Below are positions 26,525 to 27,848 of a DNA stretch of 40,441 nt, one piece after another. Made by a program: the position numbers and the translations under genes. Source of the DNA: a virus (Duplodnaviria > Heunggongvirae > Uroviricota > Caudoviricetes); the IMG/VR virus record IMGVR_UViG_2531839530_000005, positions 1-40,441 of that record. The stretch is one strand, 5' to 3'. The notes beneath the pieces are model-generated. The model ran no database searches and was not told the origin of the DNA. It was given only the letters and a program-made list of their open reading frames with translations. Numbering within the stretch: the stretch's first letter is position 1; every line of letters begins with the position of its first letter.

Positions 26525-26548
26525 CAAAAAACCCGCCGAAGCGGGTTT
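26525..26548 (-). terminator. Rho-independent terminator of hok transcript
   Basis: Stem AAACCCGC / GCGGGTTT with loop CGAA followed by T-run on minus strand. Confidence 0.45.
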
Positions 26549-26615
26549 AGTGCGGGTGCGTTGAGGATGCCTGACACATGAGAGGTGGCGAGGGATTTCT
26601 CCCCCGCCTGGTCTC

Positions 26616-26771
26616 TTACTCCTCAGATTCGTAAGCTGTGAAGACAGCAACCTCCGTCTGGCCGGTACGGATTCGTACCTCGCAGAGGTCTTTCCTCGTT
26701 ACCAGTGCCGTCACTATGACGGTTAAACAGATGACGATCAGGGCGATTAACATCGCCTTTTGCTGCTTCAT
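26616..26771 (-). CDS. hok: Hok/Gef-family type I toxin (51 aa)
   Basis: Translation MKQQKAMLIALIVICLTVIVTALVTRKDLCEVRIRTGQTEVAVFTAYESEE; not in the >=60-aa ORF track. Confidence 0.85.
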   Translation of the reverse strand: MKQQKAMLIALIVICLTVIVTALVTRKDLCEVRIRTGQTEVAVFTAYESEE

Positions 26772-26981
26772 AGCCTGCTTCTCCTTGACCTTTCGGTCCG
26801 TAAGAGGCTAATCTCTATGTGTCGCATAGATATGGCCTCAGATTAATGTTAAGCGTCTTGCAGGACGCGTAATGTTAACTGGGGCTTTTCTCTATCTGCC
26901 GTTGGTGTTCATGCCCGAGGCAGATAGCCTCAAGCACCCGCAGCAATTCTACTTAACTCCCGTCACCTCGCCAATATGAAA

Positions 26982-27071
26982 TCAATCAGAAAGGCGATCC
27001 ATAAGAACAACAGCAAGACAATAAATTGCCATTACAGCCGCAATAGCCAGCGCACATTTCAGAACCAGCAC
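26982..27071 (-). CDS. Candidate 29-aa hydrophobic peptide (GTG start, SD GGGAGG)
   Basis: VLVLKCALAIAAVMAIYCLAVVLMDRLSD; strong SD 5 nt upstream. Confidence 0.3.
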   Translation of the reverse strand: MLVLKCALAIAAVMAIYCLAVVLMDRLSD

Positions 27072-27232
27072 GATGACCTCCCATATTTGACGTACACGCG
27101 CATGATTCAATATGCAGCAACCTATTTCCTGCTTCAATATAAAATCAGGTATTGTTGTATAACTATTTAACTAACTCCCTATCCCCACATCTCAGGCGCT
27201 CAACGTCTGTGTGCGGGGCGTTTTTTAATACC

Positions 27233-27316
27233 TTACCCCCAGCGGCAAATCGCATACACCACCAGCGCCACCGCCATTGCAATTCCTACCGTTGTGAATG
27301 CTTCAGGCCATGTCAT
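27233..27316 (-). CDS. Candidate 27-aa hydrophobic peptide (SD GGAGG)
   Basis: MTWPEAFTTVGIAMAVALVVYAICRWG; SD about 10 nt upstream. Confidence 0.3.
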   Translation of the reverse strand: MTWPEAFTTVGIAMAVALVVYAICRWG

Positions 27317-27437
27317 CGTAAAACATCCTCCACACCAACCAGTCCGTTCTGCTTCAGATATTCCATCGCATTATCAGGTAGATTGCTTGATTTATTGACG
27401 CTTTTTAACGAACTGGCTAATCGCTTAACCAACATTG

Positions 27438-27848
27438 TTAATTCGTTAACCTGTTTTCCGGATGCTTGTGGATTGTCAGTTTACCAGAAGTGGCGGTACA
27501 GTCGGCGTTCCCACTCTTATCCTCCTGCGACGGTTTTGCTGCCAACTGACTGGCATATTTGTTAATGGTAACGATAAGCTCTTGCTCGGCCTCATCCAGA
27601 CAATCACCGATACCTCGCCTGTCACCGTCAAAATCATCGAAATCGGCACGAATCCTGGCAACCTCCCGGATTGCGGACAACACTTCACCAGGAATAAGCG
27701 GAGAGTTGCCCGATAGTGCATTCTGCTCCAGTGATGCCAGTGCAATCCGTGCCAGCTCACGAATCTCACCGCCGTCTATATCGTCAATGTCATCACGGCC
27801 AGAAATGTTAGCCAGCCATTGCAGTCGCTCTTTGGTAATAGTGGTCAT
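27438..27848 (-). CDS. Hypothetical acidic protein (Ea22-like position)
   Basis: 136-aa ORF in nin-like region. Confidence 0.4.
   Translation of the reverse strand: MTTITKERLQWLANISGRDDIDDIDGGEIRELARIALASLEQNALSGNSPLIPGEVLSAIREVARIRADFDDFDGDRRGIGDCLDEAEQELIVTINKYASQLAAKPSQEDKSGNADCTATSGKLTIHKHPENRLTN

Follow-up and report, generated by a model that had tools for sequence, protein, structure and literature searches.

We analyzed a 40,441-nucleotide (nt) stretch of DNA from a virus of the Caudoviricetes (IMG/VR record IMGVR_UViG_2531839530_000005, positions 1 to 40,441; hereafter the window), in which the minus strand between positions 26,525 and 27,316 carries a hok toxin gene and, upstream of it, two micro-open reading frames (micro-ORFs) of 29 and 27 amino acids (aa). 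The hok gene (26616-26771, minus strand) encodes a 51-aa protein of the HokD/HokW type (MKQQKAMLIALIVICLTVIVTALVTRKDLCEVRIRTGQTEVAVFTAYESEE; RefSeq name hokD), which matches the Pfam family HOK_GEF (PF01848) over model positions 1-42 of 42 (E=1.2e-23) and whose exact sequence belongs to a large cluster named HokD; its matches to Hok-family models of NCBIfam fall below their cut-offs. A first-pass annotation, made from the letters alone, had described a 51-aa Hok/Gef gene at 26616-26771 ending in a terminator, and this description agrees with both the Pfam match and the terminator scan, which reported an intrinsic terminator of the hok mRNA at 26529-26548 (minus strand; AAACCCGC-TTCG-GCGGGTTT followed by a T run). 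The same element forms the last hairpin in the minimum free energy (MFE) fold of the hok mRNA.

Using a promoter scan with a threshold of 9 out of 12 matches to the consensus (TTGACA/TATAAT), we located the hok promoter at 26946-26974 (minus strand; TTGGCG-17-TAGAAT), the hexamers of which are identical in phage mEp460. Its -10 element ends 7 nt before the start of an Rfam match that covers the hok mRNA leader (26769-26939, minus strand), a segment of 171 nt reaching from the transcription start, where GGGUGCUUGAGG constitutes the tac/5' element, to the hok AUG. This leader covers the whole of the Rfam model RF01794 (sok; positions 1-157 of 157), scoring 101.3 bits where the gathering cut-off is 59 (E=3.9e-23), and the position of the match on the hok sense strand implies that the model describes the hok leader targeted by Sok. 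In the 3' untranslated region (UTR), the fold-back inhibition (fbi) element CCUCAACGCACCC (26554-26566, minus strand), identical in 933W hokW and in K-12 hokD, is complementary to the mRNA 5' end. The corresponding 414-nt transcript folds with -176.4 kcal/mol (z=-8.35), and nt 1-12 pair with the fbi element in both the MFE and the centroid folds. Further Rfam candidates on the hok 3' UTR or leader (isrK, rsmX and ceN48) all scored under their gathering scores and were rejected. As a side observation, the hok Tyr47 codon TAC (26631-26633, minus strand) lies in the context UUACGAA; such sites have been reported to be A-to-I edited, with a Tyr to Cys exchange, in hokB, hokC, hokD and hokE mRNAs (bioRxiv 10.1101/2025.08.07.668861).

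On the opposite strand, a Sok antisense RNA of ~69 nt (~26821-26889, plus strand, with a U run at 26886-26889) is predicted by homology. It was mapped from sokW of phage 933W, an annotated 71-nt plus-strand RNA preceded by TTGCCT-17-TAACCT, and its putative promoter (TTGACC-18 nt-TAATCT; 26785-26814, plus strand) is the positional homologue of the promoter upstream of sokW. Because this promoter is too weak for the consensus scan, we grade Sok as homology-predicted. The predicted RNA would consist of a single-stranded 5' tail, a long hairpin and a U tail (-32.2 kcal/mol, z=-5.9), and the Sok RNA of plasmid R1 likewise has a single-stranded 5' tail and a hairpin. The first-pass annotation had staked its proposal on regulatory structure around hok, and a predicted Sok promoter, a fold-back element and a terminator are indeed found there. 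Judged from these sequence features, the locus has every regulatory part of a type I cassette of the hok/sok kind, Sok being the predicted one among them.

Between the hok promoter and the toxin gene lies a mok-like leader ORF of 19 codons (26768-26827, minus strand; MRHIEISLLRTERSRRSRL), which runs from an ATG at 26827 to a TGA at 26768. A short mok-like frame whose stop overlaps the hok start had been pointed out before, and we recovered precisely this overlap (ATGA, or AUGA in the mRNA). The leader-ORF start falls within the Sok target region and coincides with the position at which mokW is annotated to start in 933W; relative to 933W, a 2-nt deletion together with a 1-nt insertion has changed the leader frame, thereby giving the 19-codon ORF that ends in AUGA. 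We surveyed 131 distinct hok-leader sequences from the loci collected in this study (see below). The mok ATG is in frame with hok in 102 of them, which yields a Hok of 70 aa with an N-terminal extension, the form annotated as MokW, the AUGA form occurs in eight, including the window, and a few show other stops. The window thus carries a recurrent minority allele and not a private mutation. Clearly, the sequence of the leader peptide is not conserved, and what is kept is an ORF that starts in the Sok target and would deliver ribosomes to the hok start. The substitutions of this allele fall in the part of the leader that is complementary to the Sok 5' tail, from which we infer that the window allele may fail to cross-react with hokW-type copies elsewhere in the genome; the AUGA allele may in this way be insulated from co-resident hokW-type copies.

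To place this cassette among known systems, three comparisons are informative. In plasmid R1 hok/mok/sok, the 5' element pairs with the 3' fbi element, the leader-ORF start is the Sok target, and Hok translation depends on translation of the leader. The window has the same order of parts and would follow the same logic, in a prophage and not on a plasmid; however, most of the R1 mok frame runs over hok in a different register, whereas the leader ORF of the window stops exactly at the hok start. The second comparison is with hokW-mokW-sokW of phage 933W (Plunkett annotation, AF125520): the -10 region, leader, Sok hairpin, Hok core and fbi element are nearly base-for-base alike, the prophage setting is the same as in the Stx2 phages 933W and Sp5, and the 27-aa micro-ORF also lies just upstream of hokW in 933W. 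Differences concern several substitutions and the -2/+1 indels in the region of the Sok 5' tail and mok start, which leave a 19-codon ORF in place of the 70-aa in-frame MokW, the Hok C-terminus (YESEE in the window, like HokD, versus DYESEK in HokW), and the surroundings, since 933W has no 29-aa micro-ORF and carries its cassette at the record end beside an 8.4-kb ORF and not in a nin-like region. HokW itself is 44% identical to R1 Hok (Takada et al. 2021, PMC8621323).

The third comparison concerns hokD (relF) of the Qin prophage in Escherichia coli K-12, whose product differs from that of the window by a single residue (S49 versus P49). The K-12 coding region and 3' UTR, including fbi and terminator, are 97% identical to the window over 259 nt. 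No similarity is left beyond 14 nt upstream of the hok start codon, the point at which relE begins, such that Qin has relBE where the window has its leader, Sok region, hok promoter and 29-aa micro-ORF. The absence of relBE beside hok, by which the first-pass annotation had set the window apart from Qin, holds: neither the Pfam search of ORFs up to 27848 nor the RefSeq annotation contains a RelB or RelE gene next to hok. On the basis of this alignment, the window represents the intact form of the locus that is truncated in K-12, and the intact arrangement (29-aa ORF, hokD, rem, DUF968, Q) is also present in other E. coli, including BL21.

We next consider the two micro-ORFs. Two minus-strand micro-ORFs of 29 and 27 aa, each led by a Shine-Dalgarno (SD) sequence and encoding a single hydrophobic helix, had been proposed and were found as described, with the amendment that the 29-aa ORF starts with GTG and not ATG. 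This ORF (26982-27071, minus strand; V/MLVLKCALAIAAVMAIYCLAVVLMDRLSD) encodes one transmembrane helix and is preceded, at a spacing of 5 nt, by the SD sequence GGGAGG (27077-27082, minus strand), the GGAGG core of which is 92-100% conserved. A pattern within the ORF retrieved more than 100 IMG/VR loci, from which 90 distinct 770-nt segments were compared. Among these we counted 27 nucleotide haplotypes of the ORF, with no frameshift, no premature stop and one stop loss, and the amino acid replacements are conservative (A/V/T, V/I, D/E/N, R/H and M/T). The SD sequence is retained in all four 5'-UTR lineages, as GGAGG in three and as GGAGA in the L087-type lineage. A diverged homologue (26-of-90-nt) is present at one locus (L106), where an ATG five codons further upstream gives a product of 34 aa (MSDDILLAMEGALAVVAVMAIYCLVVFLIDRRGG; RefSeq WP_097921334.1); it stands 34 nt downstream of a 27-aa homologue that has diverged just as far, and is followed by a remnant of the hok leader, and its ratio of nonsynonymous to synonymous substitution rates (dN/dS) relative to the 29-aa ORF of the window is 0.45.

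Upstream of the 29-aa ORF we predict a promoter, TTGAAG-17 nt-CATATT (27109-27137, minus strand), with hexamers that are 88-100% conserved. The four upstream lineages share TTGAAx (TTGCTG in one of them) and CATATT, and the 17-nt spacer varies in sequence but not in length; a variable spacer of constant length between conserved hexamers is the signature of a promoter. The motif was found in 85 of 95 loci. The next upstream gene, moreover, is divergent in phages mEp460 and Tritos, so that there the 29-aa ORF needs a promoter of its own. A further motif, GTGTACGTC (27089-27097, minus strand), is situated at the 5' end of the predicted transcript and is 88-99% conserved over 5'-UTR lineages that have otherwise diverged.

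The 29-aa family is already catalogued in one large screen, namely as an entry in the supplementary Table S4 of PMC11188072. There, an ORF of BL21 (NC_012971.2, 1591437-1591524; VLVLKCTLAIVAVMAIYCLVIVLMDHLSD; cluster Escherichia_98807) is listed with a Ribo-RET translation initiation site count of 13, a ribosome-protected fragment count of 38 and a dN/dS of 0.46. This cluster of the Entero67K set (Fesenko et al., PMC11188072) has as its BL21 member one variant of the 29-aa ORF at the same position as in the window, directly upstream of hokD; beyond the table entry, the searchable text and supplement of that source yielded no function, promoter or hok link for it. Of 5426 complete E. coli genomes, 1927 contain the 29-aa block, and none of those listed annotates it. 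Automated annotation of phage HannyBb overlooks the 29-aa ORF and calls two hypothetical genes on the plus strand, antisense to this ORF and to the hok promoter. A plus-strand 64-aa ORF antisense to it in the window (26976-27170) was rejected as a gene, given that neither its start nor its length is conserved.

The 27-aa micro-ORF (27233-27316, minus strand; MTWPEAFTTVGIAMAVALVVYAICRWG) likewise encodes one transmembrane helix. Its ATG overlaps the stop codon of an upstream 40-aa ORF (ATGA), and its SD sequence GGAGG (27327-27331, minus strand) lies within that upstream coding sequence, with the ATG following after 10 nt. A degenerate pattern for the first eight codons retrieved 110 usable IMG/VR loci, of which all but about seven have 27 codons; the variants comprise two in-frame 6-nt deletions, a few stop-loss extensions and one frameshift. 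At least three unrelated upstream classes were distinguished, each of which retains a GGAGG-type SD sequence and the ATGA overlap with the preceding stop, and a purine-rich GGAGG-type sequence (in some cases AGAGG or AGAAGG) is present in 15 out of the 15 commonest upstream contexts. BLAST similarity with other phages and prophages begins and ends exactly at the edges of the ORF (27233-27316).

Searching with the peptide (tblastn) detected the 27-aa ORF in 93 phage records down to 55% identity. Homologues that are 55-78% identical occur in Stx phages, BP-4795, PhiR12 and Av-05, and the six intact divergent ones all have 27 codons. Seven diverged sequences together define the pattern M-x-W-P-[ED]-A-[FI]-x-x-[VL]-G-x(9)-[YF]-[AS]-[ILV]-[CF]-R-W-x, and dN/dS ranges from 0.08 to 0.57 in all 21 pairs among them. 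The ORF is unannotated in BP-4795, PhiR12_1, Stx2a_1447 and the virulent rV5-like phage Av-05, in which its first 4 nt overlap the end of the preceding gene (DUF551, Ea22, EaA or another), and in the temperate ones among these it precedes DUF4222-xis-int; a few GenBank records do list the product as a hypothetical protein. The homologue of Av-05 (121 kb) is intact and 78% identical, and that of Shigella phage POCJ13 carries a TGG-to-TAG nonsense codon at position 3. In complete E. coli genomes, the 27-aa block was detected in 1637 of 5426, at up to seven places per record. Among species-representative genomes, and at the stringency of the pattern used, it was found only in Escherichia and Shigella plus one Acinetobacter contig; for the near-identical copies in this contig (Acinetobacter idrijaensis JQCU01000559.1, 369 bp) and in Actinobacillus phage vB_Apl-pPE4, contamination or mislabelling is likelier than real spread. 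An apparent fusion of the peptide to DUF551 proteins proved to be an artefact of protein clustering. We conclude that the 27-aa ORF is, to judge from this comparative record, a real and widespread small membrane protein gene of lambdoid early operons.

SD-led ORFs of this size commonly arise by chance in a single sequence, and it is the comparison across relatives which indicates that both micro-ORFs are more than chance. Could the conservation nevertheless reflect a function at the RNA or DNA level, such as an upstream control region of hok, a small RNA or hitch-hiking with neighbours, with neither ORF being translated? Such a reading could draw on the absence of both ORFs from the RefSeq annotation of strain 300709 (see below) and from most phage records, on the promoter-like sequence of the 29-aa block and its position abutting the hok promoter, and on the low Ribo-RET counts in the published table. 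It is nonetheless clearly unlikely. ORF length is nearly constant over homologues of 55-96% identity, indels are in frame and dN/dS remains below 1 in every one of the 21 pairs; BLAST similarity ends at the ORF edges in mosaics; GGAGG-type SD sequences are kept in unrelated contexts; the antisense 64-aa frame is not conserved; and the tabulated profiling data contain an initiation-site signal. Both micro-ORFs thus bear out the earlier suspicion that they are real genes, through coding-type conservation in either case and, for the 29-aa ORF, through the published initiation-site profiling as far as Table S4 documents it (PMC11188072). For the 27-aa ORF, no translation evidence was found in the Sakai small-gene supplement or in the searchable parts of PMC11188072.

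We then asked how tightly the three genes are associated, by counting hok/27-aa linkage in the 110 27-aa loci and hok/29-aa linkage in the 95 29-aa loci. A hok leader follows the 27-aa ORF within 700 nt in 59 of the 110 loci, as in 933W, and begins 41 nt past the stop codon in 47 of them; another 45 loci are without hok, and six have both the 29-aa ORF and hok. Proximity to hok is thus common for the 27-aa ORF without being required. The 27-aa ORF, conversely, is found within 400 nt in only 7 of the 95 29-aa loci, which makes the triple arrangement of the window an uncommon one. Compared with 933W-type loci, the window carries an inserted segment (26959-27232) that separates the 27-aa ORF from the hok promoter. 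These counts show that the three units are separately mobile modules. E. coli 2017.03.02CC, and apparently many other strains, have kept the 29-aa ORF, the hok promoter and the leader, with hok cut at its ATG beside an ISEsa1-family transposase pseudogene.

The association between the 29-aa ORF and hok is a tight one. In 86 of the 95 loci the ORF lies at a fixed distance of 42 nt from the hok mRNA start, with an intact hok start following, no terminator separates it from the hok promoter, and its block, present in more than a third of the E. coli genomes counted above, stands directly upstream of hokD in four out of four inspected Qin-like contexts with an intact hokD. This raises the question of whether the 29-aa protein is a dedicated Hok partner, acting as a modulator, antagonist or helper at the level of the membrane in a three-part system of Hok, Sok and small protein, or whether its promoter produces a 5'-extended hok transcript. 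Yet 59 of 65 hok loci sampled independently, through the 27-aa pattern, are without the 29-aa ORF, including the working hokW-sokW type of 933W, and in seven loci other cargo has taken the place of hok beside an intact ORF and promoter. Moreover, the similarity of the peptide to Hok is no higher than that of shuffled sequences (p=0.29), and the linkage could reflect common descent of one prophage block. On balance, we regard a dedicated partnership, or an extended transcript, as unlikely without being negligible. Similarly little weight goes to a broader proposal in which the 29-aa protein is a Hok partner whose transcript runs into hok, so that many prophage hokD loci would consist of a toxin, an antisense RNA and a small membrane modulator, and in which, separately, the 27-aa protein (WPEAF...CRWG) is a widespread, unnamed early-operon membrane factor of lambdoid phages with a host target. 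The linkage is strong enough for a functional connection to be possible, set against common descent.

The first-pass annotation had further suggested that the arrangement forms a cluster of small membrane toxins or modulators. Small type I membrane toxins such as TisB, ShoB, DinQ, Ibs and ZorO have 18-35 aa and a single hydrophobic helix, and the micro-ORFs share this length and the single helix. If one or both of them were type I-like membrane toxins, controlled by unrecognised antitoxin RNAs, their size, their hydrophobicity (mean Kyte-Doolittle values of 2.70 and 2.25 in the best 19-residue windows) and their charged C-terminus would fit the likeness to TisB, ShoB, DinQ and Ibs, as would their position next to a known type I toxin. 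Between the two ORFs, the antisense strand also has a terminator-like hairpin with a T6 run behind it (27183-27228, plus strand; -18.1 kcal/mol, z=-1.96). This hairpin, however, is limited to ~10% of variants, those with the window-type upstream segment, and might instead stop Sok read-through. Between 26500 and 27400, the scan reported no plus-strand promoter-like site from which an antisense RNA could start and Rfam gave no match for one, and the antisense region is not specially conserved. The predicted 29-aa transcript is no more structured than shuffled sequences (z=+0.33, versus -8.35 for hok), and RNAalifold detected no conserved 5'-UTR structure in 46 distinct sequences. In contrast to the known small toxins, the micro-ORFs thus show no family match and no detected antitoxin RNA, and a 5' UTR that is neither structured nor long. 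Through ATGA, the 27-aa ORF is tied to ordinary early genes in many phages, one of them virulent, and the 29-aa ORF has a plain sigma-70-type promoter and, according to the tabulated BL21 data, is initiated on in growing cells.

Neither micro-ORF, nor the 34-aa homologue, has a significant match in Pfam, PHROGs, NCBIfam or PADLOC, and a full-text literature search for the peptide strings returned no match. A homology of the micro-ORFs to Hok or to each other was rejected, as Smith-Waterman scores were at best marginally above those of composition-matched shuffles (p=0.03-0.43 in eight uncorrected tests). Since the 27-aa and 29-aa ORFs each occur without hok, a toxin cluster is unsupported, and we consider it highly improbable that either ORF encodes a type I-like toxin. 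Of the suggested pair of roles, that of toxins is therefore not supported, on account of the separable modules, the missing antisense signal, the unstructured 29-aa mRNA and the coupling of the 27-aa ORF to ordinary early genes; the tight linkage to hok leaves a modulator role for the 29-aa protein possible.

Taken together, these results make it probable that the region comprises three adjacent, co-oriented and separable modules downstream of a cro-like gene, namely a hok/sok cassette and two genes for non-toxic accessory membrane proteins. In the model we favor, hok mRNA would be transcribed from its own promoter with a start at 26939 and be kept inert because its 5' end is bound up with the fbi element in its 3' UTR, and the short-lived Sok (~26821-26889, plus strand) would pair with that part of the leader in which the 19-codon mok-like ORF starts. 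Hok would be made only by ribosomes that have read the leader ORF and restart at the overlapping AUGA, a coupling which is predicted. Upon loss of Sok, Hok would enter the inner membrane and collapse it. The anatomy of sequence and fold was computed here, and the behaviour in this model is borrowed by analogy from plasmid R1 hok/sok and from hokW-sokW of Sp5. The latter is a working type I toxin-antitoxin pair that speeds the release of Sp5 (PMC8621323); mitomycin C treatment removed sokW RNA and raised HokW in a way that depended on RecA, phage release was halved without the locus, and the cause of Sok removal was left open by the authors (PMC8621323). Because hok is co-oriented within the early operon (see below), read-through from this operon colliding with the convergent Sok promoter may be a simple candidate for the loss of Sok. 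We infer that Sok could thus be lost not only after loss of the prophage but also during induction, when read-through hits its promoter. The 27-residue single-pass membrane protein gene would be the last, translationally coupled cistron of the early-gene string, conserved across many lambdoid phages, and the 29-residue one would be transcribed from its own sigma-70-type promoter, which abuts that of hok. Both microproteins would be non-toxic accessory membrane proteins, the 29-aa one probably expressed in the lysogen.

Several points weigh against this model. Both sets of micro-ORF loci were retrieved with patterns placed inside the ORFs, which biases those stretches toward conservation, and the dN/dS of the 29-aa ORF rests on close relatives and one divergent pair (0.45). 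The Ribo-RET support for this ORF consists of a low count, from another strain, in a supplementary table. The Sok promoter and the 29-aa promoter have 8 of 12 consensus matches each by count, and both went unreported by the scan; in strain 300709, Sok, the 29-aa promoter and both peptides are predictions. Finally, small hydrophobic peptides are often toxic when overproduced, so that the non-toxic nature of the two is a matter of deduction.

The cassette itself adds little, because hokW-sokW has already been characterised, but two aspects of it are of modest interest. It shows the hokD locus, truncated in K-12, in its ancestral and intact state. It also adds a third geometry: a leader ORF that ends at the hok start, next to the in-frame one of hokW and the overlapping one of R1, provides three natural ways of coupling within one mechanism. 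The micro-ORFs are the more useful result, being two small membrane-protein genes, each carried by about one in three complete E. coli genomes, that only a few of the inspected records annotate. Should the 29-aa protein act on Hok, or the 27-aa protein have a defined host target, easy genetic handles would be available, and the micro-ORFs could then help to explain how prophages tune membrane integrity and lysis timing.

As regards the genomic setting, the 1051 bases around the region have a match of 100% identity in E. coli strain 300709 (chromosome NZ_CP025903.1), in which the same 1051-nt query matches four places. The RefSeq annotation of NZ_CP025903.1 around the region describes a lambdoid prophage with a cI-like gene on the plus strand and all else on the minus strand. 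In the upstream part, cro-like, YdaT-like and replication genes are followed by DUF1627, DUF977, DUF4406 and two hypothetical proteins; the hok region comes next, with hokD as its only annotated gene, and is followed by DUF1367, DUF1364 and DUF1133, and then by lysis genes and terminase. From this gene order, the hok/micro-ORF region lies within the rightward early operon and is co-oriented with it. On the minus strand from 27900 to hok, the terminator scan reported no terminator-like site other than a weak intragenic one.

The 40-aa ORF (27313-27435, minus strand), which provides the ATGA coupling to the 27-aa ORF, corresponds to the C-terminal module of phrog_660/phrog_924 proteins (E=1e-14). 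Together with the preceding 136-aa ORF (27438-27848, minus strand), the sole part annotated by RefSeq, it has the look of a single gene broken in two by a frame change. In E. coli, a protein of 129 aa (P0035) ends in the same 40 aa and reads ...VNELTMLVKRL... over the junction, and the window yields this string too when translated in the frame that the 40-aa ORF uses.

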